From NCBI GenBank assembly GCA_052034805.1, contig JBPOID010000004.1, positions 23,236 through 87,235 of the forward strand: DNA of 64,000 bases. The letters are read 5' to 3'. Positions 8,463 to 63,115 of this stretch are shown in pieces; the stretch's first letter is position 1; each line of letters opens with the position of its first letter. The stretch is from Candidatus Tayloriibacteriota bacterium (GTDB lineage Bacteria > Patescibacteriota > Minisyncoccia > Phycocordibacterales > PALSA-1337). A program made the position numbers and the translations under genes. The notes under the pieces are model-generated. The model saw only the letters and a program-made list of their open reading frames with translations, searched no databases and had not been told where the DNA came from.

Positions 8463-8499
8463 AACGTATATAAGCCATATTTATTGTCTTTTATAAACA

Positions 8500-8874: not shown

Positions 8875-8946
8875 TGCGCCCGGAGGGATTCGAACCCCCA
8901 ACAACGGTTCCGAAGACCGGTATGATATCCATTTCACTACGGGCGC
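8875..8946 (-). tRNA. tRNA-Arg (anticodon TCG, tentative)
   Basis: Acceptor gcgcccg/cgggcgc, T-arm ggggg-ttcgaat-ccctc, anticodon loop cttcgga with G37. The anticodon stem has one mismatch, so the isotype call is less certain. Confidence 0.6.
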
Positions 8947-8950
8947 ATAA

Positions 8951-27841: not shown

Positions 27842-27844
27842 TTC

Positions 27845-30678: not shown

Positions 30679-30698
30679 TAATGATATAATCAACATAT

Positions 30699-31766: not shown

Positions 31767-31780
31767 TAATAAAAAATAAA

Positions 31781-33601: not shown

Positions 33602-33631
33602 ATAGATAAGTTCACTTATTGAAATAATGAT

Positions 33632-34018
33632 ATGGATGAAAAGCCTAAGAAAAAATACAGAATAGGAGGATTTGCTGTAGTAATACTTTTTATTATTGCT
33701 TTATTTTTTGATCTTATAAGTTTTATACCCTTTGTAGGCGATATATTCTGGGTATTTATGAGTTATTATCTGTATAAAACAGGTCATGGATTATTGAATC
33801 TGAGAAGATTAGTGCCTATTATGGTGTCATTTATTACAGAATCTATACCTTTTCTATCTAGTTTGCCTTCGATAATGGCTGCTACTATTAGTATTATAAT
33901 GCTATCCAGAATCGAAGATAAAACTGGAATATCCATAACATCACATACAAATATAGCAAAACCACAAATTCAAGTTCCACTGTATCAAGACGGCAGACGT
34001 TTACCAAAAAAAGTGTGA
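33632..34018 (+). CDS. Small three-TM membrane protein, T4SS-like operon
   Basis: 128 aa, hydrophobic. Confidence 0.5.
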   Translation: MDEKPKKKYRIGGFAVVILFIIALFFDLISFIPFVGDIFWVFMSYYLYKTGHGLLNLRRLVPIMVSFITESIPFLSSLPSIMAATISIIMLSRIEDKTGISITSHTNIAKPQIQVPLYQDGRRLPKKV

Positions 34019-34031
34019 TAAAATAATACTA

Positions 34032-35036
34032 ATGAAATTCCATAAAAAAATAATTATATCAATAATATTTTCATTAGGTCTTTTGGGTTTAGTTCATACT
34101 ACAAATGCACAAATACCTGATTCTATAGATGGAATAGATATTTCTTCAAGTCCAGATAATCCCAACCCAGGACAAAATGTAAATATAAATATTGAGAGTT
34201 ATTCAACCGATTTAAACGGTGCATCTATAGTGTGGATGGTTAATGGTAAGAATTATAAACAGGGAACAGGTATCAAATCCATAAGCATAAAGGCTCCAGA
34301 ACTAGGAAAAAATACAAATATTTTAGTAGCTATTATGACAATAGAAGGAAAACAAATAAAAAAAGCAATTACTATAAAGTCAGGCAGTATTGATCTGGTA
34401 TTAGAAAGCGATGGCTATATACCTCCACTATACAAGGGAAGATCATCATTTGCATATCAAAACTCAATAAGACTTATAGCTGTACCGCATCTAGCGTCGA
34501 ATGATGGGAAAGAATTAGATCCTAAAACTCTATTATATACTTGGTCAGAAAACGACAAGGTTATACAGAATCAGAGTGGCTATGGAAAGCAGGTATTAGT
34601 ATTGAAGGAGGAAACACCGAAGGAAATGAATATGAAAGTTGAAGTCAGCACAAAAACAGGAAGTCAAAAAGCTGTTTCATATATGGTATTAAATCCAACA
34701 GATCCTTCTATTCTATTTTATGAAGAAGATCCTTTATATGGAATACTTTACAATAAAGCATTACTGGGAGACAAAACATTAGATAATCAAGAAATAAATA
34801 TAGTATCTGCACCATATTATTTCAATATGTTAGAGAAAAATTCACCATTATCATTTATATGGAGTATAAATAATCTAGAAAGACCCGAACTATCTACAAG
34901 TCAAACAATAACCCTAAGATCAAAAGGGGATACATCAGGTAGTTCGCTTGTAAAACTAGAAATACGTAATAGCAATGAGATTCTGCAAGGAGGAAGTAAT
35001 AGTATCAAATTGAATTTCAATAAGAAAAATCAGTAA
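34032..35036 (+). CDS. Secreted beta-rich hypothetical protein (signal peptide)
   Basis: 334 aa; signal MKFHKKIIISIIFSLGLLGLVHTTNA. Confidence 0.5.
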   Translation: MKFHKKIIISIIFSLGLLGLVHTTNAQIPDSIDGIDISSSPDNPNPGQNVNINIESYSTDLNGASIVWMVNGKNYKQGTGIKSISIKAPELGKNTNILVAIMTIEGKQIKKAITIKSGSIDLVLESDGYIPPLYKGRSSFAYQNSIRLIAVPHLASNDGKELDPKTLLYTWSENDKVIQNQSGYGKQVLVLKEETPKEMNMKVEVSTKTGSQKAVSYMVLNPTDPSILFYEEDPLYGILYNKALLGDKTLDNQEINIVSAPYYFNMLEKNSPLSFIWSINNLERPELSTSQTITLRSKGDTSGSSLVKLEIRNSNEILQGGSNSIKLNFNKKNQ

Positions 35037-35051
35037 ATAATATACAAATAA

Positions 35052-36173
35052 ATGAAAAAGAAAATTTTATACATATTTATAATAATCATAATTTCTCAAG
35101 GCTTAGGAAGTAGAATAGCTCTAGGTGCAATAGACAGTTATAAATTAATAGAACCAATACCTTGTATAGATGGAACTGGAAATGGCTGTGAAAATGGTTT
35201 AATAAATAATGTTAATGTTGATACATATATAGCTTATATATTCAAAATAGCCATAGCTTTGGCAGGATTTCTGGCTGTAGTAATGATTATATATGGAGGA
35301 TTTACATATATGCTGAGCGAATCCATAACAAGCAAAAGTGGTGCAAAAGATACGATAAAGAATGTCGTATTAGGATTATTAGGGGCATTATCATCATTTT
35401 TAATACTTCAGACTATCGATCCTAGATTAGTAAACATAAATACAACAATACCTAAAATACAAGTTAAAGACGATAGTAGTGTAGACAGATTTGCAAATCA
35501 ATTAAGTTCGGATATGAAACAAATGTCTGCAGAAACAAGAGATCAGGTTGCTAAAATGAAAGATGAGTCAGATAAACTAAAACAGCAAATAGATTCTTTA
35601 AAAAAAGAAATTAGCGATAATCCATCAAATAAAAGTGATTTAGAAAATCAATTATATGAATTAGAAAATCAATGGAAAAAAGCAGAAGCAAATGTAGCAA
35701 AAACTTCTGCAATATCTATAGGTACTACCTATTTCAGAAATGCTTTTGATACAATAACCAAAGAGAATGCTGGTGAGGATTTGGTGGATACTAATTCTGT
35801 AGATAAACATAAAATAGACCTGCAAAAAGCAATGGATTTATACAAAGACAAAGCAAATAATATTGGGGAATACAATACTTCTCAAGATATTACAAATATT
35901 GAAAATTATTATCTCGATCAGATTGATAATGAAAGAATGTTCGTTGATTCAATAGTCAATGGTTATACCAAAGTAGCTAATAGAGTATCTATAAATTATT
36001 CTGTAAGAAAACAATTAATAGAGGATTTCTTGAAAAAATATGAGAATCCAGAAACTGATCCTTATTATCAAAAATATAAACTTTATCCAAATAACGAATT
36101 TATATTAGATAGTTATAAAAAATTACAAGATTCTAGAGCTTCTAGAGCAAAAGAAGTATTAAAGAAAATCTAA
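35052..36173 (+). CDS. VirB2/TrbC-like pilin-type N-terminal module (signal plus two hydrophobic helices) fused to a long coiled-coil domain
   Basis: Signal peptide, then YIAYIFKIAIALAGFLAVVMIIYGGFTYM and KNVVLGLLGALSSFLILQTI helices (VirB2-like topology), then about 230 aa predicted coiled coil. Confidence 0.4.
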   Translation: MKKKILYIFIIIIISQGLGSRIALGAIDSYKLIEPIPCIDGTGNGCENGLINNVNVDTYIAYIFKIAIALAGFLAVVMIIYGGFTYMLSESITSKSGAKDTIKNVVLGLLGALSSFLILQTIDPRLVNINTTIPKIQVKDDSSVDRFANQLSSDMKQMSAETRDQVAKMKDESDKLKQQIDSLKKEISDNPSNKSDLENQLYELENQWKKAEANVAKTSAISIGTTYFRNAFDTITKENAGEDLVDTNSVDKHKIDLQKAMDLYKDKANNIGEYNTSQDITNIENYYLDQIDNERMFVDSIVNGYTKVANRVSINYSVRKQLIEDFLKKYENPETDPYYQKYKLYPNNEFILDSYKKLQDSRASRAKEVLKKI

Positions 36174-36179
36174 TAAACC

Positions 36180-37439
36180 ATGAAAAAAATATTAATAACA
36201 TTACTAATACTCGGAATAATAGGTGGTGGTGCTTATTATTGGTTTTTTTATAAAAATAATACAGATTCAACAATAGAAACAGAAACCCCAACAGACAATA
36301 CTCCTACAAAGAAATTCACCCCAATCAATCGCTCAAACACAAATACAAATAATACAGAGAAAGTATCAACTTCAACAAAAAATACAAATATTGAAAATGT
36401 TAATAATACTGTAAAGATGCCTGCATTAAGAAAGATAAGCGATGTACCAGTAGGGGGTTATATGGCAAGTAGTACAGCTAGTTCTACAGTTATAAGATAT
36501 ATAGATCGTGGTACAGGACATATATTCGAAACTAGAAGTGATACAAACTCCGTTGAAAAGATTTCTAATACCACTATAGCTAGAGTTTATGAGAGTTATT
36601 GGAATAATACTGCAAATAAAGGCATATTTAGATATATAAAAGAGAATTCAAATATAATAACAAATTTATACGGAGAAATATTGCCATCATCTAATACTGG
36701 TACAACATCAGATAAAACAGCTTATCAAACAAAAGGATTGATACTGTCTTCGAATATAACAGAAATGGCTATATCACCCAAAGGAGATAGACTATTTTCA
36801 TTCTATAATGAAGATAATGGGGGAGTGGGCTATATATCTATGTTAAATGGTAGTAAAAATACTAAATTATGGAATACTCCATTCAAACAACTTTATTTTG
36901 ATTGGCCTGAAGAAAATACTATAGTAGCAACGAATAAACCATCCGGTTATTCATTCGGATATTCATATACAATAGATGCAAAAACTGGAATATCAAAAAA
37001 GATAATAAATCAGATATTAGGTCTATCGGTGAAATTAAGTCCTGATGCAAAAAATGCAATTCTTTCTTCTGGTGGTAGTAATATATCTACATTCTTATTC
37101 AATATTAAGAATAATTCTTATCAATCTGTAATCTTTAAAACCTTAGCAGAGAAATGTATTTGGAGTAAGATTAGAAATAATATGATTTATTGTGCTGTTC
37201 CAACAGAAATACCACAAGGATTATATCCAGATGATTGGTATAAAGGAAAAATATCTTTTACAGACAGAATATGGAGTTTCAATATAGATTCTGGGGAAGT
37301 TCATATGTTAGCCGATCTATCATCTCTAGCAAAAACCTTTATTGATACTATGAATTTAAAATTAGATAGTAAAGAAAACTTCTTATATTTCATAAACAAA
37401 AACGACCTAAGTCTATGGTCATTAGATTTGAATCTTTAA
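36180..37439 (+). CDS. Membrane-anchored T/N-rich protein with a probable beta-propeller-like C-terminal domain; last gene of the operon
   Basis: 419 aa, N-terminal TM, T/N-rich linker. Confidence 0.5.
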   Translation: MKKILITLLILGIIGGGAYYWFFYKNNTDSTIETETPTDNTPTKKFTPINRSNTNTNNTEKVSTSTKNTNIENVNNTVKMPALRKISDVPVGGYMASSTASSTVIRYIDRGTGHIFETRSDTNSVEKISNTTIARVYESYWNNTANKGIFRYIKENSNIITNLYGEILPSSNTGTTSDKTAYQTKGLILSSNITEMAISPKGDRLFSFYNEDNGGVGYISMLNGSKNTKLWNTPFKQLYFDWPEENTIVATNKPSGYSFGYSYTIDAKTGISKKIINQILGLSVKLSPDAKNAILSSGGSNISTFLFNIKNNSYQSVIFKTLAEKCIWSKIRNNMIYCAVPTEIPQGLYPDDWYKGKISFTDRIWSFNIDSGEVHMLADLSSLAKTFIDTMNLKLDSKENFLYFINKNDLSLWSLDLNL

Positions 37440-38164
37440 GCTTCTTTTAGGCTTTTCTTTATATATATTTCCTGAGCTAAAGTAAATAAACTAGATACAG
37501 TCCAATACAAAGCAATTACAGCTGAGTATTTGTATGATATTAGAAATATCATAACGGGCACTATATATTTCATATTACTCATCATATTTTGAGTCATATC
37601 TAATTGTTTATTAACATTTGCTGTCTTATTATTATCTTTCTTTGGTGAATTTATAGAGAAATGTAATTGCAAATATTGAGATACCGCGGCTATAATAGCC
37701 ATTGCAGTACTTGCTTTGCTTATATCTAGAATACCTAAGAAATTCATATTTACAGTTGGTATATGAATAAAATCATATAAAATAGTTCGATTAATATCTG
37801 GTAATCCAGATTTTATAAAAATAGAGTAGAGTGCAAATATAATTGGTAATTGTATTATTAAAAATATAAAACTAGAGAAGGGACTTATGCCTTTTTCTTT
37901 ATATAAAGCCATCATTTTCATAGCTTGAGCATTACGATCATTAGCCATAGTTGTCTTTATTTTATTTATTTCTGGCTCTATTTTCTTCATCATAAGCTGA
38001 GTTATTACAGCTTTTTTAGAAAGAGGGAATAGTATAAGTCTCACTATTATAGTAAAGATAATAACAGCCACACCCGCATCAATCCAAGGTAATAAATCCA
38101 TTAGGAATATTAGACCGTTATATAATGGATTGAATATAAATAAAGTGTATAAATGTGAAAACAT
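37436..38164 (-). CDS. yidC: Membrane protein insertase YidC (short form)
   Basis: 242 aa; YidC/Oxa1 core helices; sits in the conserved rpmH-rnpA-yidC arrangement. Confidence 0.85.
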   Translation of the reverse strand: MFSHLYTLFIFNPLYNGLIFLMDLLPWIDAGVAVIIFTIIVRLILFPLSKKAVITQLMMKKIEPEINKIKTTMANDRNAQAMKMMALYKEKGISPFSSFIFLIIQLPIIFALYSIFIKSGLPDINRTILYDFIHIPTVNMNFLGILDISKASTAMAIIAAVSQYLQLHFSINSPKKDNNKTANVNKQLDMTQNMMSNMKYIVPVMIFLISYKYSAVIALYWTVSSLFTLAQEIYIKKSLKEA

Positions 38165-38173
38165 ATGACTATT

Positions 38174-38512
38174 CTACTTTAAAAGTCCCAAATTAACAAA
38201 GATTTCTTTTGTATATAATTTTATATCTTCTAAATTCAGTTTTATAATTTCTGGTTTAACTATAAATATAATGTTACCAGTTTCGGTAGGGGATATTGTT
38301 TTAAATGAGTTTATTGAAGAATAAACCCTTCTTCTTATTTTATTTCTAATAACTGCACTCTTTGAGACTTTCTTTGATACAGATACAGCAAACCTTAAAA
38401 GACTTTTGTCCTTTATAAATCTTACTATAAAAATCTTAGAATGTAGGCTTTTGCCTTTGTCTATTACTTTCTTAAAAAGGGCTTTATTAAGCCTTTTTTC
38501 TTTTGGAAGCAT
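38174..38512 (-). CDS. rnpA: Ribonuclease P protein component
   Basis: 112 aa; LPKEKRLNKALFKKV...RNKIRRRV basic RnpA pattern; between rpmH and yidC. Confidence 0.85.
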   Translation of the reverse strand: MLPKEKRLNKALFKKVIDKGKSLHSKIFIVRFIKDKSLLRFAVSVSKKVSKSAVIRNKIRRRVYSSINSFKTISPTETGNIIFIVKPEIIKLNLEDIKLYTKEIFVNLGLLK

Positions 38513-38513
38513 A

Positions 38514-38648
38514 TTAAACTACGAGCTTCTTACGTCCTTTTGATCTACGACGATTTATAACATTTCTTCCACTTTTACTCTTCTTTCTTACTAGGAAGCC
38601 ATGTGTGCGAGCTCTCTTTCTTTTTTTAGGTTGATATGTAAATGACAT
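38514..38648 (-). CDS. rpmH: 50S ribosomal protein L34 (not in the supplied ORF track; 44 aa)
   Basis: Manual translation of the minus strand gives [44 protein letters not shown], a canonical L34 sequence. Confidence 0.85.
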
Positions 38649-38822
38649 AATGGAAATAGCATACATTACGAGAGACAAAAACGCAAGGATTAAGAAAATT
38701 TTCTATTTTCACACAATCCACATGTTATCAACATATTTATTCGCCTTACACAAGTTTGATATTTTTTAAACAAGTATATACTAGTAGTATTATTTTTATT
38801 TTTATCAAACGCAAACACTAAA
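38649..38822. promoter_or_regulatory. rpmH-dnaA intergenic region with DnaA boxes (TTATCAACA at 38725-38733; near matches CAATCCACA and TTATCAAAC); left part of oriC / dnaA promoter
   Basis: 9-mers matching TTATNCACA found by reading the sequence. Confidence 0.5.
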
Positions 38823-40166
38823 ATGAATGATCAAGATAAACTTTGGGAAAATGCTTTGGTAGAAATAGAGCTTGCTGTATCGCAAGCGAACTTTTCTACA
38901 TGGTTCAAAGATACATTCCTATTAAAGCAGGAGGATGGGGTAGTTTATCTAGGAGTTCCTAATTCTTTTACAAAAGATTGGCTATACAAGAAATTTCATA
39001 ATGTTATTTTGAGATCATTGAGAAAAATGGATGAACAAATACGTTCTTTGGACTATATAATAACCAAAGATAGTGAGAAAAAGGCCAATATGAACAAGAA
39101 ATCATCCGCAACTCCTACTATATCTATGCCTCTTCAAGATTTTTATATAAATAGAGATGATAATTTGAATCCTAGATATGTATTTGATTCATTTGTTGTT
39201 GGCCCATTCAATGAATTAGCTCATGCAGCATCAAAAACTGTAGTCAAAAGTCCAGGAACAGCTTATAACCCTCTATTTATATATGGAAATACGGGTCATG
39301 GTAAAACACATTTAATACAAGCCATAGGTAATCATATAAAACATGATTTTCCAGATAAAAAAGTGTTTTATCTGACATCAGAAAGATTCGGATCTGAATA
39401 TTTCAATGCATTACAAACAAACAAAGCCCAGCAATTCAAAGAAAAATATAGAAAATACGATGTTATTATCATGGATGATGTTCAGTTTTTCTCTGGTAAA
39501 GACAAATTCCAAGAAGAATTCTTCTATTTATTCAATACTTTTCATGAAAGCAATCGTCAATTGGTATTTTCTTGTGATAAACATCCAAACTTTATACCTG
39601 GACTAGAAGATAGAATAAAATCTAGATTCAACGCTGGTATGATAATAGAATTACCAGCTCCAGACAAAGAATCACGTATAGCAATACTGAAAGCCAAGAG
39701 CTTGAACAGTAATGTAATACTTGAAGATCAAACACTTGAATTCCTTGCCGAAAATATAGAGAGTAATGTTAGGGAATTAGAGGGTGTTGTTAATGCAGTT
39801 GTATGTCAAACTCAATTAAAAAAGAGACCTTTGTCTATCTTGGAGGTAAAAAACCTAGTTAAAAACAGTACAAAACCAAAAAAGAATATATCTATAAAAG
39901 ATGTTGTTAAGATTATATCTGATTTTTATAATATAGATGAAGAAAGTGTTTATGATAAGACAAGAAAAAAGGAAGTTGTTAAGCCAAGACAGATTATTAT
40001 GTATATTCTAAGAGAAGATCTGAATGTTTCTTTCCCATCGATAGGGGAGAAAATAGGTGGTCGAGATCATACAACAGTTATACATTCATGTGAAAAAATA
40101 AAAGAGGATTTAAAAAATAATCAGATTTTAGTCGATGAGATTTCACAGATACGGTCAATGTTGTAG
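38823..40166 (+). CDS. dnaA: Chromosomal replication initiator DnaA
   Basis: 447 aa; AAA+ Walker A GNTGHGKTHL, DnaA domain IV at the C-terminus. Confidence 0.95.
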   Translation: MNDQDKLWENALVEIELAVSQANFSTWFKDTFLLKQEDGVVYLGVPNSFTKDWLYKKFHNVILRSLRKMDEQIRSLDYIITKDSEKKANMNKKSSATPTISMPLQDFYINRDDNLNPRYVFDSFVVGPFNELAHAASKTVVKSPGTAYNPLFIYGNTGHGKTHLIQAIGNHIKHDFPDKKVFYLTSERFGSEYFNALQTNKAQQFKEKYRKYDVIIMDDVQFFSGKDKFQEEFFYLFNTFHESNRQLVFSCDKHPNFIPGLEDRIKSRFNAGMIIELPAPDKESRIAILKAKSLNSNVILEDQTLEFLAENIESNVRELEGVVNAVVCQTQLKKRPLSILEVKNLVKNSTKPKKNISIKDVVKIISDFYNIDEESVYDKTRKKEVVKPRQIIMYILREDLNVSFPSIGEKIGGRDHTTVIHSCEKIKEDLKNNQILVDEISQIRSML

Positions 40167-40388
40167 AGAATATGTTGATAAGACTGTTAATAAGTTGTGA
40201 TGGTGTTGTTTAAAAAGCTAATTATAAAGTGAATTAAAATAATTTAAGTAAAGTTATGAAAAATTATTATTTATTTATCAACAACTTAACTAATGAAAAT
40301 ATATTGATAAATAGAGACAGAATGTACTTATCAACATATCCACAGGACTAATAATAGTAATAAATTATATTTAAATAAATACAAAATT
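40167..40388. promoter_or_regulatory. dnaA-dnaN intergenic oriC candidate: at least four DnaA boxes (cTTATCAACA reverse at 40173-40181; TTATCAACA at 40275-40283 and 40328-40336; aTATCCACA at 40337-40345) with AT-rich unwinding tracts
   Basis: Box 9-mers read directly; location between dnaA and dnaN is classical. Confidence 0.6.
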
Positions 40389-41492
40389 ATGAGGATAGAA
40401 TGTTCACAAGAAAAAATAAAAGAAGCAATATCAATATCAAGACATATAATAGGGAAGAATATGACACTCCCTGTTCTTTCTTGTTTTCTTATAGAAACAA
40501 ATAAAAATAATAGTTTAATTATTAAATCAACAAATTTAGATTTAGGAATAGAGGTAGAGATACCAGCTAAAGTCATCGAGAGTGGGTCTATAGCAGTCCC
40601 AGGACAGACTTTATCATCATTTATAGATAATACCTCGGATAATGAAAAAATAATCAAAATAGAAGAAGATAAAGGCAATGTTAAAGTTATAACATCAAAA
40701 AATTCAGGAATAATAAAAACATTATCTACAGACGATTTCCCAAGTATTCCACATATAGAAAGTGACAATAAATTTACTTTATCTGCTTCTGATTTTGTAA
40801 AAGGATTAAAATCTACATGGTATAGCTCTTCTATATCAAATATAAAACCAGAATTATCTAGTGTTTATATATATTGTGAAGATGAATTTGTAACTTTTGT
40901 TGCTACAGATTCATTTCGTCTTGCTGAAAAGAGAATAAAAATGAGAAAAAGTAAGGATTTCGGTCAAATTCTTATTCCATACAAGAATATTCCTGAAATA
41001 ATAAGAGTTTTAGAAAAAATAAATAGTGATATAGAAGTTTGTTTGGAGAAAAATCAAATATCTTTTAATTATAATGGTATATATCTAACATCTAGAGTTA
41101 TAGATGGAGTTTTTCCTGATTATAAACAGATTATACCTAAACAAAGTCTCACAGAAATAATCGTATTAAAACAAGATCTTATAAATGCTTTGAAATTATC
41201 AAATGTTTTTTCTGATAAATTTAATCAGGTTAATATAAATGTTTCTTCTCTTAAGAAATGTGAAATAAAGACTAAAAATAATGATATAGGAGAGAATATA
41301 AGTCTAATAGATGCTTCTATAAAAGGGGAGTTGATAGATATTAATTTTAACTATAAATATATAATAGACTGTTTTCAATCAATAGATTCTGATAGTGTCA
41401 CTTTGATATTGAATGGTCCTCATAGACCAATGATAATATCTCCAATATCTGATAAAACATTCAGATATATAGTCATGCCTATGAATAGATAA
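40389..41492 (+). CDS. dnaN: DNA polymerase III beta sliding clamp
   Basis: 367 aa; three-domain beta-clamp; position after dnaA. Confidence 0.9.
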   Translation: MRIECSQEKIKEAISISRHIIGKNMTLPVLSCFLIETNKNNSLIIKSTNLDLGIEVEIPAKVIESGSIAVPGQTLSSFIDNTSDNEKIIKIEEDKGNVKVITSKNSGIIKTLSTDDFPSIPHIESDNKFTLSASDFVKGLKSTWYSSSISNIKPELSSVYIYCEDEFVTFVATDSFRLAEKRIKMRKSKDFGQILIPYKNIPEIIRVLEKINSDIEVCLEKNQISFNYNGIYLTSRVIDGVFPDYKQIIPKQSLTEIIVLKQDLINALKLSNVFSDKFNQVNINVSSLKKCEIKTKNNDIGENISLIDASIKGELIDINFNYKYIIDCFQSIDSDSVTLILNGPHRPMIISPISDKTFRYIVMPMNR

Positions 41493-51804: not shown

Positions 51805-52485
51805 ATGATTTATTTCGATAAAGTTACAAAGGTTTACCCAGATGAATCTATAGCATTAGACGGTGTAAGTTTCGCTGTAGAACCAAAAGAATTCATAACA
51901 ATAGTTGGTCATTCTGGTGCTGGAAAAACTACCCTAATAAAGATGCTTATAGCCGAAGACAAACCTACTGATGGGGCTATATTCTTTGAATCAAAGAATA
52001 TACATAAATTAAAAAGAAAAGATATGAATAAATTAAGACGTCGTATCGGTACTGTCTTTCAAGATTTTCGTCTTATACCTAACAAAACTGCTTATGAAAA
52101 CATAGCTTTCGCTATGGAAGTTTCTGGACATACAGATAAAGAAATAGCATCAGATGTTCCTTATGTATTAGATTTGGTTGATCTAGGTGATAAGATGTGG
52201 AATTTCCCTCATCAACTTTCTGGCGGAGAGAAACAAAGAGTAGCTATAGCTAGAGCCATAGTCAATCAGCCAGATATAATAATAGCCGACGAACCAACAG
52301 GAAGCGTTGATCCTATAAATACCTATGGAATTATAAAAATTTTACAGAAAATAAATGAATTAGGAACTACTATACTTATGACAACTCATAATAAAGGAGT
52401 TGTAGATACTGTAGGTGGAAGAGTTATAACAATGGAAAAAGGCAAAGTTGTAAGAGATGATAAAGAGGGAAAATATATTCTATAA
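51805..52485 (+). CDS. ftsE: Cell division ATP-binding protein FtsE
   Basis: ABC ATPase with GHSGAGKTT, LSGGEKQR, IIADEPTG; followed by ftsX. Confidence 0.9.
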   Translation: MIYFDKVTKVYPDESIALDGVSFAVEPKEFITIVGHSGAGKTTLIKMLIAEDKPTDGAIFFESKNIHKLKRKDMNKLRRRIGTVFQDFRLIPNKTAYENIAFAMEVSGHTDKEIASDVPYVLDLVDLGDKMWNFPHQLSGGEKQRVAIARAIVNQPDIIIADEPTGSVDPINTYGIIKILQKINELGTTILMTTHNKGVVDTVGGRVITMEKGKVVRDDKEGKYIL

Positions 52486-52503
52486 TATAAAAATACAAAT
52501 AAA

Positions 52504-53460
52504 ATGTTATTTACATATTTAAAAAGAATAATAAAAACAGGATTTATAAACTTTTGGAGAAATGGTTTTCTTTCTTTCGCTGCTATTATAATTCTTACTC
52601 TATCGCTATCTTCTTTCGGTGCTCTCATGTTCGGTAGTGCCTTTGGCAAAACTCTCATAGAGGAAGTGAAGAATAAAGTTGATATAAATGTTTATTTCAC
52701 ATTGAATGCGCAAGAATCAGATATTTTGAATTTAAAGAAAACTATAGATCAATTAGGAGAAGTGGATAAAACAGAATATATATCTAGAGATCAAGTATTG
52801 GCAAATTTCAAAGATAAATGGAAAGACAATGCAAGAATATTACAAGGTCTAGATGAAGTGGGGGACAATCCTTTCCCAGCGGTTTTGAATATAAAAGCAA
52901 AAGAACCATCTCAATACGCTGGTATAGCTAGATTCCTAGATGGCAAGAATTCTTTATCAAAGGATGGAGACAATATAATAGACAAAGTTAATTATAATCA
53001 AAATAAAGTAGTTATTGATAGATTGGGAAAGATTATTCCTTTCGCAGAGAGAACAGCTTCTTTTATAGCTATAGTATTTGTAATTATATCTATAATCATT
53101 ACTTTCAATACTATTCGTCTCGTTATATATAATTCTAAAGATGAAATTTCTGTTATGAAGCTTGTTGGTGCTTCGAATTCCTATGTTAGGGGACCATTCG
53201 TCATGTCTGGAATAATGTATGGCATATTCTCGGGAATATTGACGCTCATCATTCTTTTTACTTTTTCTTATTACAGTGATTTGGCAATAATGAAAATAGC
53301 TGGTGTAGAGAATTCAGCAGATCTTGGTCTTATAATAAATATATTTTCTCAATATTTCATATCAAATTTCGGAGAAATTTTCGCAATAGTTATGACTTCT
53401 GGTATTGTCTTGGGGGCGATATCTAGCTATATGGCGGTACGTAGATATTTGAAGGTTTAG
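52504..53460 (+). CDS. ftsX: Cell division permease FtsX
   Basis: 318 aa; TM1, large extracellular loop, three C-terminal TMs; downstream of ftsE. Confidence 0.85.
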   Translation: MLFTYLKRIIKTGFINFWRNGFLSFAAIIILTLSLSSFGALMFGSAFGKTLIEEVKNKVDINVYFTLNAQESDILNLKKTIDQLGEVDKTEYISRDQVLANFKDKWKDNARILQGLDEVGDNPFPAVLNIKAKEPSQYAGIARFLDGKNSLSKDGDNIIDKVNYNQNKVVIDRLGKIIPFAERTASFIAIVFVIISIIITFNTIRLVIYNSKDEISVMKLVGASNSYVRGPFVMSGIMYGIFSGILTLIILFTFSYYSDLAIMKIAGVENSADLGLIINIFSQYFISNFGEIFAIVMTSGIVLGAISSYMAVRRYLKV

Positions 53461-56171: not shown

Positions 56172-56227
56172 TCTATTTTATATCTAAATTAATTCTCATT
56201 TAATAAATAAGAATTTTTAGAGTTTGT

Positions 56228-57442
56228 CTAAATCTCAGTTATATCTCTAGGTGAGAAAAGATTAACAGTCCATTCAACTGCTATCTTTACTCTATTTCTC
56301 CATGAATGAAAATTGAATAGATATATAGTTCTCCATAACCACCACATAAAAGGTCCTTTAAGTGTAATACCTGATATTTTTCCCGCCGCATACCATTGAC
56401 CCAAAGATACTAATAATCCTTTTTCTTTGAATTTGAATGGTGTAAGAGGTTTATTCGATATTGTATATATAATATTCTCGGCTACATTCTTGCTTTGTTG
56501 TACTGCAACTTGAGCAAGCATAGGTAATGTTCCAGAAACATCCCCCAATGCGAATACATTATCTTTTACTCGCAAATACTCATCTATTTTTATTCTTCCA
56601 GATTTTTCTAATTCTATACCTTCTATATTTGGTGATTTTGGCTTTACACCAGCTACCCATATTATAGTGTCGGCTACTACAGAAGAACCATCCTTTAATA
56701 TTATTTTTCCTGATTCTACAGAAGTCACTGCTGTATCAACCATAACATTCACACCTTTTCTTATAAGTTCTTTATGAGCTATACTCTGTAATTTGATAGG
56801 GAATTGTGGTAATACATCTTTGCTTGCGGCTACTAGATTTACCTTCATATGATTTCTTTCGAATCCACACATTTTGTAATACGAGCATAATGTTTCATGC
56901 ATGAATTCTACAAGTTCCGCGGCTAATTCTACTCCAGTAGGACCTCCGCCGACTATTATTGTAGAAAGGATTTTGGTTTTCTCTTCATTATCTTTTATGA
57001 TTGAAGCTTTTTTGCAATTATTCAATAAAGTTCTTCTTATAGATATTGCATCTGTTAGGTTTTTCAAGGTAAAAGAATTTTCTTTTGCTCCATTAGTTCC
57101 ATAATAATTCGTTTCTGCTCCAGAAGATATAACAAGATAATCATAAGATAGAGTTTTTGTTCCTGTGGCTATCTCTCTTCTTTCTGTATTTATAGATAAA
57201 ACTTCATCTTGAATAAAGTTCACATCAATACCTCTCAATATTTCTTCTATCGGTTCTACTACATTTGTAGGTGATAGACCCCCAGTTGCAACTTCATGCA
57301 ATAATGGAGTAAATAAGAAATAATTTTCTTTATTTATAAGAGTTACTTCAGCAAAACCACTTTTTATAATTGGTTTCAAATATTTTGCAGTATAAACACC
57401 ACCGAAACCACCACCTATAATTATTATTTTTACTTTATTCAT
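56228..57442 (-). CDS. ndh: Type II NADH:quinone oxidoreductase (NDH-2)-like FAD-dependent oxidoreductase
   Basis: Two Rossmann dinucleotide motifs (IIIIGGGFGG; IVGGGPTGVE), C-terminal amphipathic / membrane-anchoring tail; 404 aa. Its start overlaps the upstream permease gene by 8 nt. Confidence 0.8.
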   Translation of the reverse strand: MNKVKIIIIGGGFGGVYTAKYLKPIIKSGFAEVTLINKENYFLFTPLLHEVATGGLSPTNVVEPIEEILRGIDVNFIQDEVLSINTERREIATGTKTLSYDYLVISSGAETNYYGTNGAKENSFTLKNLTDAISIRRTLLNNCKKASIIKDNEEKTKILSTIIVGGGPTGVELAAELVEFMHETLCSYYKMCGFERNHMKVNLVAASKDVLPQFPIKLQSIAHKELIRKGVNVMVDTAVTSVESGKIILKDGSSVVADTIIWVAGVKPKSPNIEGIELEKSGRIKIDEYLRVKDNVFALGDVSGTLPMLAQVAVQQSKNVAENIIYTISNKPLTPFKFKEKGLLVSLGQWYAAGKISGITLKGPFMWWLWRTIYLFNFHSWRNRVKIAVEWTVNLFSPRDITEI

Positions 57443-58646
57443 ATCTTAATGCTTCTATTGGATTTAATTTTGAGGCTCTTCGAGCAGGGTAATACCCGAA
57501 AGCTATACCAATAATAGCAGATACTCCGAAAGCTAGCACTATCGATAATAGGGAAACTTTTGTCTGTATAAGTCCAAGAGTTGTAACTATAGTTGCTACA
57601 GCCCAACCCAAAGTTATCCCTATAGCGCCACCTATAATAGTTAATGCTACAGCTTCTACCAAGAATTGCAGACTAATATCTTTTCCTTTTGCACCGATTG
57701 CTTTACGCAAACCTATTTCTTTTGTTCTTTCTGTTACTGTTGTAAGCATCATATTCATAATACCTATTCCACCAACAACAAGCGAAATACTTGCTATAGC
57801 AGCTAGGAATAATGTGAATGCATCCGTAACCTGATTAAGTGTCCCTAGAATATCAGCTTGAGAAATAATAGAGAAATCAGCTTCGGTAACTCTATGCTTT
57901 TTTATAAGTAATGTAGTTGCTATATCTTTTATATCGCTCATTGTATCTTTGTCAAAAACACTAACAGCTATTGTAGATAGATAATCAACACCAGTTAGGA
58001 CTTTTTGCATTGTAGATAATGGTATGAATATCATATCGTCTTGATTTGCGAATCCAGATCCTCCTTTTGATTCCAATACACCTATAACCTTGAATATCAC
58101 ACCGTTTATCTTTATTGTTTTGCCCAAGGCAGAATCTCCAGCAAAAAGATCATTAGAAACTGTAGATCCTATAACAGCTACTTTTGCTAAACTATTATCT
58201 TGGCTTGATGTAAAGAATACACCGTCTGAAGTTACTAGATTTCTTACTGTAGAATATTCTGCTACAGTTCCTATTACAGTTGAATTAGTATTATTACCAA
58301 TAGATGAAACTATTTGGAATCTTCTATCCAGTTCTGGTGCAACGAGATTTACTCCATCTATTGATTTCAATACGTCTACATCTTCATTTTTCAAACTTTG
58401 TGCAGCTCCACGTCCCGAAGACACTATACCTCTACCTGGTTGTAATGCTCCTGGATATATTGTTAATAGATTAGATCCCAATCCTTCTATACTTGATTGT
58501 ATAGAAGCTTGAGCACCTTGTCCTATGGATACCATAGCTATAACTGAACCTATACCTATTATGATACCTAACATTGTTAGGGAAGTGCGCACCTTATTTG
58601 CTGTTAGTGCTGAGAATGTCTCATGCATTATATCTCTAGTTGTCAT
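57435..58646 (-). CDS. ABC transporter permease, MacB/FtsX family
   Basis: 403 aa; TM1, large periplasmic domain, three C-terminal TMs, C-terminal YPARRASKLNPIEALRYE. Confidence 0.85.
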   Translation of the reverse strand: MTTRDIMHETFSALTANKVRTSLTMLGIIIGIGSVIAMVSIGQGAQASIQSSIEGLGSNLLTIYPGALQPGRGIVSSGRGAAQSLKNEDVDVLKSIDGVNLVAPELDRRFQIVSSIGNNTNSTVIGTVAEYSTVRNLVTSDGVFFTSSQDNSLAKVAVIGSTVSNDLFAGDSALGKTIKINGVIFKVIGVLESKGGSGFANQDDMIFIPLSTMQKVLTGVDYLSTIAVSVFDKDTMSDIKDIATTLLIKKHRVTEADFSIISQADILGTLNQVTDAFTLFLAAIASISLVVGGIGIMNMMLTTVTERTKEIGLRKAIGAKGKDISLQFLVEAVALTIIGGAIGITLGWAVATIVTTLGLIQTKVSLLSIVLAFGVSAIIGIAFGYYPARRASKLNPIEALRYE

Positions 58647-58647
58647 A

Positions 58648-59352
58648 TTATTGATTTACTTTTCTTTTTTTATGATTACGACCATCTTCCACAATCATTC
58701 CATCACGTATATGTATTATTCTATCAGCATGTTCAGCTACATCTCTTTCATGTGTTATGAGAACTATTGTACATCCGAAGTCTCTGTTTAATGATTCGAA
58801 TGTTCCTAACACTATATTTCCAGTAGCTGTATCTAGATTTCCAGTTGGTTCATCGGCAAGTATTAGAGAAGGATTATTCACCAATGCACGAGCTATGGCA
58901 ACTCTCTGTATTTGCCCTCCTGATAATTGATTTGATTTGTGATTGAATCTATCTTCTGACATACCAGCACTAAGCAATGCTTTTTTAGCTCTAGTTTCTC
59001 TTTCTTTTTCTGGTATACCTGCATAGACTAGTGGTAACGTTACATTTCGTAACACTGTCGCTCTCGGTAGTAGATTGAAAGCCTGAAACACGAAACCTAT
59101 TTTATCTCTTCTTATTGTAGCTAGTTCATCATCAGATAATTTCGATACATCATGATTGTCTAATTTGTATGTTCCTGAAGTAGGAGTATCCAATGCACCC
59201 AATATATGCATCAATGTAGATTTTCCAGATCCTGATGGACCCATTATAGCTACGAATTCTCCATCCTCTATATTGAAACTAACTCCATTTAAAGCATGAG
59301 TTTCATTATCCCCGCTAATATACGTCTTTTTTATATTTTTTATTTCTATCAT
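58648..59352 (-). CDS. ABC transporter ATP-binding protein (MacB/LolD-type)
   Basis: [41 protein letters not shown]; 234 aa. Confidence 0.9.
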
Positions 59353-59365
59353 TTTAGATTGAATC

Positions 59366-60976
59366 TTATCTAGGCACAGCTCCAGTATTATTTCTTCTTT
59401 GATTATTTCCTAAACCACTAAATAATGATGGGGCAGTGCTTGTTTTCGCTACTCCTGTAAAAGTTTTTACAATTATTTTATCACCTTCGTTTAACCCGCT
59501 ACTTATTTCGGTATTTGTGTCATCTGTATTTCCGACTGTAACTGGTAATTGTGTAACTTTCTTATTTGTACCCATTATTTCTACATAACTTTTCTGTTGC
59601 TTTGATATTGTTCTTGTCTTCACTGCACTAGAAGGTACGACAATAACATCATTTATTTCTTTTACGGTTATAGTTACATCAGTACTCATTCCAGCACGCA
59701 CTCTAGCATCATTATCTTCAAAGACTATTTTTACATTATATGTAACCACTCCTTGGCTAGCTGTTCCTATAAGATCTACTTGAGTCACTTCTCCATCCAT
59801 AGTAAGACCAGGTATAGCATCAAATGTTAATTTTACTTTCTGACCCGCTACTACCTTTACAGCATCAACTTCGTTCAATGGTATATTTGTTATCTTTTTA
59901 TTACTAGATATTGTGGCTATAGTAGTTCCAGAACCGGCTTGCTCATACACATTTACAGGTATTCTACCTATAACACCATCAAATGGTGCTCTTATGAAAT
60001 ATTTTGCATAGTTTCTTTCTTTTTGAGCCAGAGATATTTTCTGAGCTTGTATATCTAGATCATCTGCGCCTTTCACAAGATTATTCAATGCATCTTTATA
60101 GCTATCTATATTATTTATAGAAGATACAAGGCTTGATAAATCACTGTTTATTGTACTTGACCATGTTGTGACATTTGTCTTTGCTAATGTCGCTTGGGAA
60201 GTGTTCAGATCTGGCTGGCTTGAATATATGAATGCAACAGCATTTTGAGAATCTTTTAGAGCTTCAGCAAATAATTTTGTTAAATCATAAGTTTGAGATA
60301 GAAATGCGTCTATTGTATTTTTATCACTTGCTCTGGATAGATCTTTATAGTCATTTAACAGTGAATCATATTTGTATTTAGCTTTATAATAACTATTATT
60401 AGCTATTGTTCTATAACCTTGACCTGTATAAGTCATATTTACAGATTGATTATCGCTCAGATATCCACTACTGTTTGATAATAAACTTTTTAATCCATCG
60501 TCAATAGCTGTTATATCTATAAAAGCATCTGATATTGCACTTAAAGCATCATTGTATGATTTTGCTACATTATTTTCTGCATTTACCATATCTCCTTCAT
60601 CTGCAGGTTTAACAAGCTTTGCATATGCTATACGAGCATTCTCTAGGTCTAGAAGGGAATCACGAGAATCTATAGTAGCTATTAGATCACCAGTTTTTAC
60701 TATTTGTCCTACTTTAGAATTTATGGATAGAATTTTGCCAGAGACTTCACTTGTTATATCTATTTGATTTTCTGATGATACTTGACCACTACCTGTAACT
60801 GTCTCCACTATGGATCCTTTCTTGGCGGTATCATATATATATTGTGTTGTTGTAGATGAACCGAAAACAGATTTTATTATAGAATATCCCACGATAATTA
60901 TAATCATTATAACTATAGTACTTATAATTTTATGATTAACAATATATTTTTTTGCTTTATTTAATATTATTTTCAT
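59366..60976 (-). CDS. HlyD/MacA-like periplasmic adaptor (membrane fusion protein) with an extended coiled coil
   Basis: N-terminal TM, biotinyl/lipoyl-like and beta-barrel segments flanking a long helical hairpin; 536 aa; operon context with an ABC/MacB pair. Confidence 0.75.
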
Positions 60977-61494
60977 TATTTTATTGGAAGTATTCTAATA
61001 AGTTTAGCTGTTATTTCTCCATTTTGTGTTGGAGATCCAACTACTATAATATTATCATCAATTTTGATATCTGTTGTAGTGCCATTATTTCTGAATTGTC
61101 TAATAAGTGTGTCTTTGTTTGTTAATACTATTCTCTCTATATTATCACTTCCTTCAACTACTATATTTGATCCATTTATCTTTATTACTTTACCAGATAC
61201 ACCATATCCTGAAGGCATCATTTCGCCATTGAATGATCCATCCATCATTCCATTTCCGAATCCATTCATCATGCCTTTTCTGAAATCTGGTCTTTGTCCG
61301 CCGAAATTCTTATAGAAATTATCACCAAATCCATAAGAAAATGAAGCTTTTCTCAATCCTATAGACATTCCTGCTTGGAATACGAATATCAATACTATAA
61401 GTGATAATATGATTGTAAGTATTGGCTTTGTTAATTTATTTTTCATAAGATTATTTACTATACTATTTTCTTTTTTTGAATTATCTTTTTCCAT
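60976..61494 (-). CDS. Membrane-anchored hypothetical protein with a G/M/N-rich linker
   Basis: 172 aa; TM helix; GMMNGFGNGMMDGSFNGEMM low-complexity. Confidence 0.5.
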   Translation of the reverse strand: MEKDNSKKENSIVNNLMKNKLTKPILTIILSLIVLIFVFQAGMSIGLRKASFSYGFGDNFYKNFGGQRPDFRKGMMNGFGNGMMDGSFNGEMMPSGYGVSGKVIKINGSNIVVEGSDNIERIVLTNKDTLIRQFRNNGTTTDIKIDDNIIVVGSPTQNGEITAKLIRILPIK

Positions 61495-61499
61495 ATATT

Positions 61500-61907
61500 T
61501 TATATTGTTATTATTATTCTTATATTTTTATTTAGACTTGATAATGACCAAATAAATACTCCCAAGATAGCCAGAGATATCGCTATGGCAAAGAAAGGCA
61601 AAGAGCTTGTCACAAGCATTATGAATTCTTTCCAATATGACAATAAAGCCGAACTATCATAATAAATAAGTGATACATATTCATAGAAACCAGATATTCT
61701 AAGAGATTCTAATAAGCTCTTTATTACAGGCATCATTACTAGTACAGATGCGATAAATAAAGTACTTGCATAAACTATTTTGAATATCAATATTTTCTTT
61801 TTTTCTTTATTAATCCTTAGGATTATTGATTCTTCTAATCCCTTTGGAATGTCTATATATCCCATACTCATATCTTTATATACGTTATTATTTTTATTTT
61901 GGTGCAT
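61500..61907 (-). CDS. Putative anti-sigma factor (small multi-TM protein whose start overlaps the ECF sigma gene)
   Basis: 135 aa; 14-nt overlap with the upstream sigma gene; two or three TM helices; assignment by context only. Confidence 0.4.
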   Translation of the reverse strand: MHQNKNNNVYKDMSMGYIDIPKGLEESIILRINKEKKKILIFKIVYASTLFIASVLVMMPVIKSLLESLRISGFYEYVSLIYYDSSALLSYWKEFIMLVTSSLPFFAIAISLAILGVFIWSLSSLNKNIRIIITI

Positions 61908-62475
61908 TTTCTATATATTTCTTTAAAATAATAATACCTCTTCTATACTGACTCTTAACTGTATTCATCGGTTTTCCTAATACACTAGCTATTTCTTCAA
62001 AGGTCATTTCTTCATTATTCTTTAATAGTATTATAGTTCTTTGATTTACTGATATATTTTTCAATGCTTCGTTTAAAATGTCTCTTTTATTTCTTGATTC
62101 TTCTTCATTTATGAGTATTTCTTCTTGCAAAATATTTTCATCTTTTATATTTTCCTCAAATGAATTGGTATTTTCTTCATTATCATCAAGACTTGAGAAG
62201 AGTAGGGGTTTTCTTTTTCTAATCCAATCTATTGTTGTATTTCTAGCTATAGAAAATATCCAAGGCTTGAATTCTTTATTTAAATTAAATTTCTTCAAAT
62301 TTTTCCAGACTTTTATAAAGGTTTCTTGAGTTATATCTTTTGCTTCATTTTCTTCATAACATATGTGATATATAAAATTATAAATCGGTTTTGTATAGAG
62401 AAAAACAAGACTTTTCAAAGCTTCTTCGTCACCATTCAGGTATTCTTTTATTAGTTTTGTATCATAGTCTTTCAT
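61894..62475 (-). CDS. RNA polymerase sigma-70 factor, ECF subfamily
   Basis: Region 2 (YTKPIYNFIYHICYEENEAKDITQETFIKVWKN) and region 4 HTH (MTFEEIASVLGKPMNTVKSQYRRG); 193 aa. Confidence 0.85.
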   Translation of the reverse strand: MKDYDTKLIKEYLNGDEEALKSLVFLYTKPIYNFIYHICYEENEAKDITQETFIKVWKNLKKFNLNKEFKPWIFSIARNTTIDWIRKRKPLLFSSLDDNEENTNSFEENIKDENILQEEILINEEESRNKRDILNEALKNISVNQRTIILLKNNEEMTFEEIASVLGKPMNTVKSQYRRGIIILKKYIENAPK

Positions 62476-62563
62476 AGTCTTTCTTTTAGAAATTATACCA
62501 TTTAAACCTTATTTTTACCCATTTTTTCAACATTGACTTTACATAAATATTCATGCTATAATT

Positions 62564-62998
62564 ATGCCAGATATGAGGACATTGAGATTTTTGGGAAACC
62601 TTTTGGGGTTGGTGTTGTTGCTTGTCTCCGGCGTCGGTTGTGGTACCGTCGGAGACGCGCGGACTGTCGCCTATTGGCGATCTGATCCGTTATGTGATAC
62701 AAGGGTGGAAGTAGATCCGAACAACTTTGTTCGGAGAAGCTCGACCTATGTGTCGAACTTGGACGGGAGTTACCAATACTCTCACAGTCAGGGTACGGAC
62801 ATTTACGTAACCCAGACATGGTCCCCATGCGTGGGGAATAGAACCGAGGTACGTCAGAGTACCTACAGTAACACAAGTACCTATCAGAGTTCTGGTTCGT
62901 ACTATCCCTATCCCACCTTTACTTCCGGTGCTGGAGTATATGGTGGTTACAATTATGGTGGTAGTAGTATCCCACCCGGTAGAGGAATCTATCGTTAA
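62564..62998 (+). CDS. Small secreted / lipoprotein-like S/T/Y/G-rich protein encoded in a strongly GC-rich island
   Basis: 144 aa; signal peptide ...LLLVSGVGCG; local GC well above background. The antisense ORF 62562-62876 is judged spurious. Confidence 0.5.
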   Translation: MPDMRTLRFLGNLLGLVLLLVSGVGCGTVGDARTVAYWRSDPLCDTRVEVDPNNFVRRSSTYVSNLDGSYQYSHSQGTDIYVTQTWSPCVGNRTEVRQSTYSNTSTYQSSGSYYPYPTFTSGAGVYGGYNYGGSSIPPGRGIYR

Positions 62999-63005
62999 TA
63001 AGTTT

Positions 63006-63115
63006 CCGGTCTCGAGAGGGGACTCCCCACCTCTCTCATGGGAGAGAGGACTCCAAACCCCTCTCCGACCGGTTGCCGGTGTCGCTCTACCAAGAGTGGC
63101 ACCGGTTAATTTTTT
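63006..63115 (+). terminator. GC-rich nested palindrome (63006-63072) followed by a rho-independent terminator hairpin ccggtgtcgctctacc-aagagtggcaccgg plus T-run
   Basis: Outer arms ccggtctcgagagggg / cccctctccgaccgg, inner arms cctctctc / gagagagg; second hairpin then ttaatttttt. Confidence 0.55.

Follow-up and report, generated by a model that had tools for sequence, protein, structure and literature searches.

A type II NADH dehydrogenase gene overlapping a MacB-type pump gene in a Patescibacteriota lineage: probably packing within a three-module operon and not coupling to export

What does it mean when a gene for a type II NADH dehydrogenase (NDH-2) overlaps the permease gene of an ATP-binding cassette (ABC) exporter: a redox-linked transport mechanism, or an ordinary case of gene packing? 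The question is raised by a 64,000-nucleotide stretch of DNA, hereinafter the window, from a Candidatus Tayloriibacteriota bacterium (GenBank assembly GCA_052034805.1, contig JBPOID010000004.1, positions 23,236 to 87,235 of the forward strand), in which seven minus-strand genes (56228-62475) successively encode an extracytoplasmic function (ECF) sigma factor, a protein with two transmembrane (TM) helices, a protein with an OB-fold-like barrel, the adaptor, ATPase and permease of a MacB-type pump, and an NDH-2. An earlier note, made from the letters of this DNA alone, had described these genes as chained by overlaps (14, 1 and 8 nt), and had suggested that export might be linked to redox reactions through translational coupling of the NDH-2 gene (ndh) to the exporter. 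Through comparison with related loci we have come to favor, with moderate confidence, the reading that this is a compact seven-gene operon of three separable modules (the sigma trio, the exporter and ndh), in which ndh is packed together with the pump and export is not coupled to it. Since relatives lose the three modules independently, the arrangement points to ordinary gene packing and not to a redox-coupled machine; the overlap of NDH-2 with the exporter would be best explained by compaction around a resident ndh, without a new transport mechanism.

The chain of overlaps could be reproduced to the exact nucleotide. The first gene (61894-62475) codes for the ECF-type, SigW-like sigma factor of 193 amino acids (aa) with Sigma70_r2 and r4_2 domains, and overlaps by 14 nt (ATGCACCAAAATAA) the gene (61500-61907) for the 2-TM membrane protein of 135 aa, a putative anti-sigma factor without a family match. 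A 5-nt gap separates the latter from the gene (60976-61494) for a G/M/N-rich bitopic membrane protein of 172 aa with a C-terminal OB-fold-like barrel, which in turn shares 1 nt (TAATG) with the gene (59366-60976) for the 536-aa adaptor, a membrane fusion protein (MFP) of the YknX/MacA type. The gene for the 234-aa ABC ATPase of the MacB/YknY type (58648-59352) follows after 13 nt, and that for the 403-aa MacB-type (type VII ABC) permease (57435-58646) after a further 1 nt; finally, ndh (56228-57442; 404 aa) starts inside the last permease codons with an overlap of 8 nt (ATGAATAA). With gaps of at most 13 nt, all six junctions are too tight for a promoter or a terminator. Geometrically, the operon ends where ndh faces the convergent CTP synthase gene across a 56-nt spacer (56172-56227), in which no terminator was called and only a weak AT-rich hairpin (z –1.2) was found; terminator calls were at or below the shuffled expectation. 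The GC content at third codon positions (GC3) lies at 0.16-0.24 across all seven genes, like that of the neighboring genes, in a window of 31.5% GC, and this uniformity rules out recent horizontal transfer of any module. Because an independently assembled relative (L082) repeats the identical seven-gene set, including the 8-nt overlap, at protein identities of 72-96%, we consider it a conserved operon and not a chance run of open reading frames (ORFs). Those close relatives of ndh and of the adaptor that carry a taxon name all come from Paceibacterota, Patescibacteria, Nomurabacteria or Taylorbacteria. The functional labels first proposed for the seven products hold up, as detailed below.

The evidence that carries our reading comes from eleven related loci, which we retrieved from contigs bearing homologues of ndh, the adaptor or the 172-aa protein; the presence or absence of modules was read at the locus, within ±10 kb around each relative, and some of the trio-bearing contigs are very short. 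Most of these loci have a single shared backbone, with PolA, TsaE and a small lipoprotein on one strand, the operon on the other, and then a CTP synthase-FtsX-FtsE-PrfB array. The configurations of the operon fall into four states: ndh alone (three loci: L083, L084/85 and L090); adaptor-ATPase-permease-ndh lacking the sigma trio (five loci: L086, L087, L088, L089 and L091); all seven genes (the window and L082), to which L100/101 and probably L102, with the trio and then the adaptor gene at a contig end, are similar; and, on a different backbone behind a gene for a pyridoxal phosphate (PLP) enzyme, the genes for the sigma factor, the 2-TM protein and the OB-fold protein directly followed by ndh (L098/99). 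Thus, ndh is the constant gene of the locus, with the exporter and the sigma trio independently present or absent. One of the ndh-only loci, L090, retains a scar of the missing exporter: after the shared promoter motif and ahead of the ndh ATG it has an in-frame '...LNPIEALRYE*', i.e., the last 10 permease codons, which is 28-29/36 nt identical to permease 3′ ends and corresponds to the invariant C-terminus of the permease. In phylogenetic trees, the ndh-only L083 nests with the exporter-bearing L087/L089 and the window and L082 group with L086/L091, each with 100% bootstrap support, and the permease tree is congruent with that of ndh (L098 is placed at the edge of the clade on 150 residues only). 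The scar, the nesting of L083 and the congruent trees together argue for loss of the exporter rather than its gain.

The permease/ndh junction itself differs between lineages: the window, L082, L086 and L091 have –8 nt, L088 has –1 nt, and L087 and L089 have +39 nt. Since ndh starts equally far from its GGGFGG motif in the –8 and +39 lineages, the 8-nt overlap arose by loss of the spacer, with the overlapping ATG of ndh being supplied by the terminal permease codons TAT-GAA-TAA. The 39-nt spacers (L087, 13573-13611; L089, 13569-13607) carry a TACAAT 6 nt 5′ of the ndh ATG, and L098 (2073-2102) a TATAAT 8 nt 5′ of it, spacings that would be typical of a proximal, leaderless-type promoter; the window lineage has no such ndh-proximal –10 element. 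Consequently, the overlap on which the proposal of permease-ndh translational coupling was founded is real, but it is a lineage-specific trait. With its four configurations, a deletion scar and a lost spacer that bore a probable promoter, the locus amounts to a natural experiment in modular operon decay in Patescibacteria.

The same comparisons bear on the alternative that the MacB-type pump and NDH-2 are functionally coupled, for instance in the handling, extraction or detoxification of quinones (perhaps from a host) or other redox-active lipophiles, with co-translation matching their amounts. The adaptor-ATPase-permease-ndh order is kept in seven of the eleven loci, with start/stop overlaps in five of those seven, and in a locus of a more distant relative (L003), ndh comes after another MacAB paralogue and a ZIP gene, with DoxX and ApbE upstream. 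Further, published Candidate Phyla Radiation (CPR) genomes with an NADH dehydrogenase lack quinone biosynthesis genes (PMC8407418), and relatives of MacB such as HrtAB strip lipophilic redox-active molecules from membranes (PMC5985334). Against such coupling, three lineages have ndh by itself at this position, one of them bearing the permease scar and another lying inside the exporter clade, while L098 has the trio and then ndh with no pump; the junction is variable, the spacer-bearing loci show an ndh-proximal –10 box, and the unrelated neighbors TsaE and the lipoprotein are conserved at least as well as the exporter-ndh adjacency. Moreover, an adjacent MacB-type permease was found in none of 80 NDH-2 loci of other lineages among the matches listed, a background obtained by scanning a genome collection with the NDH-2 alignment, which includes generic Rossmann motif patterns, and drawn mostly from distant phyla. 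A metagenome scan with the ndh protein gave only two close loci, L090 and L091, and our literature search found no link between NDH-2 and MacB. We accordingly regard functional coupling as quite unlikely; the comparison lends no support to a mechanistic link between NDH-2 and export or to the idea of redox-linked export.

What, then, are the modules? The transporter is of the MacB type when set against the LolCDE and DevCA types, as profile scores show, in answer to a question raised in the earlier note. The permease matches MacB_PCD (2e-44, residues 21-242) and FtsX (6.3e-20, residues 283-396), scoring 258 bits with the MacB profile vs 26 bits with LolCE and 19-30 bits with FtsX; its relatives in the PDB are MacB (5nik, 1e-62), Streptococcus pneumoniae Spr0695 (5xu1_M, 1e-40) and YknZ (5f9q), with MacB structures aligning over residues 10-401. 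Its architecture, in which a TM helix at the N-terminus precedes a large extracytoplasmic MacB_PCD domain and a C-terminal 3-TM FtsX domain, fits the MacB class. The ATPase (ABC_tran, 6.8e-36) has its best NCBIfam match in the MacB nucleotide-binding domain (NBD; 259 bits, followed by DarD with 240 and LolD with 233), retains intact Walker A, signature and Walker B motifs (LILADEPT is present in the translation), and is 82-96% identical among relatives. The adaptor matches HlyD_3, HlyD_D23 and Biotin_lipoyl_2 in Pfam and passes TIGR01730 RND_mfp (148 bits vs a cutoff of 94.9), and its homologues bear the PF25990 Beta-barrel_YknX and PF25989 YknX_C domains. It has an N-terminal TM helix, and MacA structures align to its residues 43-119 and 302-504. 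The lipoyl half-motifs lie ~183 residues apart vs ~80 in MacA, so that the long coiled coil first noticed in it is real: an α-hairpin region of ~180 residues, roughly twice that of MacA. LolCDE, FtsEX and DevABC readings of the transporter are ruled out by the profile scores (the adaptor reaches 35 bits with DevB vs a cutoff of 129); a separate FtsEX pair is encoded at 51805-53460.

The presence of such a pump in an organism with an apparently single membrane had been singled out as notable, a point that did not hold up: adaptor-plus-MacB pumps have been recognized in monoderms since 2000 and are structurally characterized. Examples are YknXYZ, Spr0693-0695 and AS-48EFGH (PMC5985334, PMC5768738, PMC4887032), and macB genes have been noted in metagenome-assembled genomes of Patescibacteria (PMC11484240). 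Our homologue search retrieved YknX-type adaptors from hundreds of Patescibacteria; long-hairpin adaptors of this type appear to be the norm in these ultrasmall monoderm bacteria, where the length of the hairpin may reflect the thickness of the envelope. No TolC-type outer-membrane factor was seen among the ~45 ORFs scanned across the 64 kb of the window, and none would be expected. Sortase genes adjoin ndh in syntenic relatives, and a monoderm envelope would be consistent with these sortases and with the YknXYZ-like form of the pump.

Among known systems, the closest parallel is Bacillus YknWXYZ, with which the window system shares a YknX-type adaptor, a separate ATPase, a MacB-type permease and a single-membrane host. 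In Bacillus subtilis, sigma W governs yknXYZ (PMC4105308), which protects against the SDP peptide toxin (PMC4887032); the window sigma factor is in turn closest to SigW. Unlike in Bacillus, the sigma gene lies inside the window operon, which also has an OB-fold partner and an NDH-2 gene at its 3′ end; the adaptor is ~160 residues longer, with its hairpin of ~180 residues; the putative anti-sigma factor is a 2-TM protein lacking a zf-HC2/RsiW-like domain; and the operon encodes no YknW/Yip1-type or other polytopic accessory protein. The three protein types and their domain order are also those of S. pneumoniae Spr0693-0694-0695 and Escherichia coli MacAB(-TolC); unlike the E. coli MacB, an NBD-permease fusion that needs TolC, the window system has its NBD as a separate protein.

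As for the last gene of the operon, its product is, by sequence, a genuine and conventional membrane-associated NDH-2. It matches Pyr_redox_2 (1.3e-50) and the PF22366 NDH2_C membrane anchor (33.8 bits vs a cutoff of 27.7), and carries two dinucleotide motifs, GGGFGG (residues 10-15) and GGGPTG (165-170), that are invariant in our alignment of the family (A1). The likewise invariant LAQVAVQQ (309-316) lines up with AQIAMQQ and AQIAIQH in the Staphylococcus aureus and Caldalkalibacillus thermarum enzymes, within the AQxAxQ motif that we take to be the quinone site of NDH-2. The closest structures are those of S. aureus, C. thermarum, B. subtilis YjlD and a 494-aa NDH-2 (9mqy), the alignment with the last running through the C-terminal anchor to residue 398. 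Like the bacterial enzymes (S. aureus NdhC/SAOUHSC_00878, C. thermarum, YjlD; E ~1e-47), it has two Rossmann folds, the AQxAxQ motif and a C-terminal anchor; it differs from those with solved structures in its ~30% identity, in the location of its gene at the end of an exporter operon, and in a host lineage for which reports generally describe no quinone biosynthesis (PMC8407418). Earlier studies have noted NDH-2 in genomes of CPR bacteria, and those from soil are reported to be devoid of quinone biosynthesis (PMC5220378, PMC8407418, bioRxiv 10.1101/2025.10.14.682086). Our scan of ORFs in the window, which at 64 kb covers a small part of the genome, turned up neither men/ubi nor respiratory genes. 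The Listeria-type locus for flavin-based extracellular electron transfer (EET), comprising Ndh2, EetA/B, PplA, FmnB and DmkA/B, likewise groups a specialized monoderm NDH-2 with proteins of the membrane and of the extracytoplasmic space. The likeness goes no further, and an EET reading of the operon is ruled out, as none of the other defining genes of that locus occurs in it.

The sigma factor of the third module comprises Sigma70_r2 (27-89, 5.7e-16) and r4_2 (132-180, 6.6e-10) with no region 3 (Pfam), and passes the TIGR02937 sigma70-ECF profile (105 bits vs a cutoff of 42.9). Its nearest solved structure is B. subtilis SigW (5wuq, E 9e-27), other ECF factors following at 1e-15 or weaker, and it fails the SigW equivalogs (NF007223, 128 bits vs a cutoff of 209; TIGR02948, 111 vs 243); on these scores it is SigW-like only, outside the SigW equivalog. 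The 135-aa protein encoded next to it, as also in L082, L098 and L102, has no Pfam or NCBIfam match, no PDB match at E≤10 with a profile of 36 sequences, and no Foldseek match below E 1 with a confident model. It nevertheless belongs to a large unannotated family, whose 1136 representative clusters (E≤1e-3; each ~120-150 aa) share, in order, the motif PPxGLxxxIxxRI, TM1, SGFYxYxSLxFSD...YWKEFxLSLxESLP and TM2. The alignment and an AlphaFold2 (AF2) model (pLDDT 88; helices 24-72 and 105-134, with three short helices between them) indicate a short conserved cytoplasmic helix, the only one ahead of TM1, and two TM helices enclosing a conserved extracytoplasmic SGFYxY...YWKEF...ESLP loop. From its position, the protein is most likely a putative membrane anti-sigma factor, and the family may constitute a new minimal anti-sigma class. 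Several unrelated members (alignment A3) start with MHQN, MHQK or MHQR, as does the window protein, whose start (ATGCACCAAAA) overlaps the sigma stop; these MHQ-type starts hint that the overlapping sigma/2-TM junction may be conserved well beyond the clade.

The 172-aa protein, likewise without a Pfam match, belongs to a rare family (seven matches), with identities of 36-76% across the trio-bearing lineages. It is predicted to have an N-terminal TM helix, a disordered G/M/N-rich linker and an extracytoplasmic OB-fold-like β-barrel, with an AF2 pLDDT (alignment A2) of ~90 at residues 97-170 and below 50 at 64-96; Foldseek retrieved generic OB folds only, the best being IF-1 (E 9e-4). As its gene invariably comes after that of the 2-TM protein, whether or not an exporter lies downstream, we assign it to the sigma module, where it probably takes part in sensing. 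The 2-TM family and its rare OB-fold partner, travelling with a SigW-like sigma factor, thus stand as a candidate minimal anti-sigma/sensor pair.

Is this sigma module dedicated to the operon, as had been claimed? Whichever state a locus is in, with or without a sigma gene, its divergent intergenic region is homologous to that of the others. On the lipoprotein side it has a conserved promoter, TTGACTTT-N-TGnTATAAT, the best promoter match of the region (window 62533-62562); on the other side, most related loci show a TGnTA(T/G/C)AAT-like box 5′ of the first operon gene, be it that of the sigma factor, the adaptor or ndh. In the window this is TGGTATAAT (62492-62500, minus strand), an extended –10-like element 16 nt 5′ of the sigma ATG, which is a putative housekeeping-type promoter for the operon. 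In L084, L086-L089 and L091, a –10-like box (TATAAT, TAGAAT or TATCAT, mostly with an upstream TG) stands 8-9 nt before the first-gene ATG; together with the ndh-proximal elements, such boxes 6-9 nt before ATGs suggest that leaderless transcripts may be common in the clade. A search for an ECF-type motif upstream of 62475, which the earlier note had proposed, returned no such motif and only the extended –10-like TGGTATAAT: GAAC-N15-18-CGT is absent 5′ of the sigma or adaptor gene, with 3 window matches vs 5.3 expected, albeit the specificity of this subgroup may differ, and its sole match in the operon (57705-57727) lies inside conserved permease coding sequence. The consensus for SigW-like promoters is TGAAAC-N16-CGTA, which is not matched in the operon upstream region.

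These results could be taken to mean that the trio is a mere neighbor at a permissive intergenic site, with its regulon elsewhere and the operon served by the housekeeping promoter alone, and the five close relatives that run the exporter and ndh from the shared promoter region with no sigma gene point the same way; pump and ndh can evidently be run from a shared promoter. We consider this very unlikely. The trio recurs 5′ of the adaptor or ndh in at least four diverged lineages, which supports a regulatory link to the operon; ECF sigma genes are normally autoregulated along with the genes downstream; and the failed consensus search is weak, since the promoter specificity of the subgroup may differ. 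The link is therefore probably regulatory, to judge from gene order: the recurrence of the trio in L082, L098/L099, L100/L101 and L102 leaves dedicated ECF control plausible; no ECF-type promoter was found to back it, and the promoter region is common to sigma-less relatives.

The trio could also have ndh, or the redox state of the membrane, as its chief target, with the exporter an accessory passenger; it would then respond to membrane or oxidative stress by adjusting NDH-2 expression. L098/L099, where the sigma, 2-TM and OB-fold genes lead directly into ndh with no exporter, would fit such an arrangement, as would the fact that ndh is the sole gene found in every configuration. Yet L098 could have arisen by deletion, just as L090 did with respect to the exporter, and has its own TATAAT before ndh; the trio precedes the adaptor gene in three other lineages; and most ndh loci of the clade have no sigma gene. 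We hence deem this alternative unlikely.

Taken together, the three-module reading would work as follows. The operon would be transcribed from the conserved extended –10 promoter 5′ of its first gene, with the ECF module adding stress-inducible expression: the SigW-like sigma factor, translationally coupled to the 2-TM protein as its presumed membrane anti-sigma factor, would form an envelope-stress module, and the bitopic protein with its extracytoplasmic OB-fold would share in sensing. By analogy with YknXYZ and MacAB, the pump may expel antimicrobial peptides or other amphiphilic toxins by ATP-driven mechanotransmission, clearing the outer leaflet of the single membrane through the wall zone much as has been described for YknXYZ, Spr0693-0695 and AS-48EFGH. 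NDH-2 would re-oxidize NADH independently of the pump, its gene being the ancestral, constant one of the locus that came to be co-transcribed with the pump through genome compaction, when the window lineage presumably lost the permease-ndh spacer plus its –10 box.

Several observations weigh against this account. The exporter-ndh adjacency spans a large divergence (52-62% identity for the adaptor, 59-70% for ndh), and coupling-type overlaps occur in four of the seven exporter-ndh loci, as a functional link would also give. In the more distant Taylorbacteria locus L003, a MacAB paralogue lies one gene 5′ of ndh, and the absence of the exporter in ndh-only relatives holds for the surveyed flanks only. 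Generic sigma-70 promoter calls in the window numbered 28 vs 38 expected by shuffling, and no recognizable anti-sigma domain (zf-HC2 or a class I-III anti-sigma domain) was found in the 135-aa protein by Pfam, NCBIfam, PDB profile or Foldseek searches. A bolder alternative would unite the three modules, sensor, MacB-type extractor and NDH-2 reductase, as one unit for quinone acquisition and detoxification in a quinone-auxotrophic episymbiont, in which the sensor would detect redox-active lipophiles, e.g., host-derived quinones or quinone-like antimicrobials, at the membrane surface and co-induce the extractor, to remove or position these molecules, and NDH-2, to reduce them; we hold it to be highly improbable.

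Some further features of the relatives concern the surroundings of ndh. L083, L084, L087 and L089 hold a 3-6 kb insert between ndh and CTP synthase that the window does not have; it contains genes for DUF892, a YflT-like protein, two sortases and proteins of unknown function, and sometimes PemK toxin genes. Indels have hence occurred on both sides of ndh. L083, L087 and L088, with ndh alone in the first and the sigma-less exporter form in the other two, all come from one NCBI assembly, GCA_034680565.1, which, with three locus versions inside it, evidently holds several related organisms and not one genome. The L003 locus (Candidatus Taylorbacteria, JBAXSG010000002.1, 3174-13168) is a co-directional run of genes for DoxX, an unknown protein, ApbE (flavin transferase), bPH_2, an adaptor, an ATPase, a MacB-type permease, a ZIP transporter, NDH-2 and a P-type ATPase, possibly a membrane redox and metal island. 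Its pairing of ApbE with NDH-2 recalls flavin-based extracellular electron transfer loci, and a second, more similar MacAB set lies 7 kb off on the opposite strand.

Next to the operon, on the plus strand of the window, is a GC-rich island (62533-63110; ~50% GC, GC3 0.50 vs 0.16-0.24 elsewhere) with an ORF (62564-62998) for a lipoprotein-like protein of 144 aa with a signal peptide, an LVSGVGC lipobox and a conserved SNLDGSYQYSHSQGTD core. The strongest sigma-70-like promoter of the region lies 5′ of this ORF, and conserved GC-rich hairpins and a terminator (63075-63106) lie 3′ of it; its transcript folds far better than shuffled versions (z –6.0), and Rfam at gathering and permissive thresholds found no RNA family in the operon or the island. 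The substitution pattern relative to L082 (13/16/35 by codon position) indicates that the ORF is coding; together with the retention of the lipobox ORF in relatives, it rules out an RNA gene as the sole content of 62564-62998. No candidate peptide or bacteriocin gene adjoining the operon was seen among the window ORFs.

Elsewhere in the window, a plus-strand stretch (25211-37439) of large, mostly unannotated genes resembles the type IV secretion or conjugation-like clusters seen in CPR genomes; among its products are a DUF4141 protein, a protein with TSP3 repeats and a VirB4/TraG-like P-loop ATPase (31781-33601, plus strand). This stretch is followed (37436-41492) by genes for YidC (minus strand), DnaA (38823-40166) and DnaN (40389-41492); given DnaA and DnaN at 38823-41492, the region of the chromosomal replication origin is probably covered by the window. 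Two further stretches (7325-8947 and 12712-13707) hold four minus-strand tRNA genes (Gly, Pro, Gly and Arg) among small ORFs and, ~4 kb off, a tyrosine recombinase gene (Phage_integrase family, XerC/D-like), and the window also encodes a class A penicillin-binding protein and a type IV pilus ATPase.

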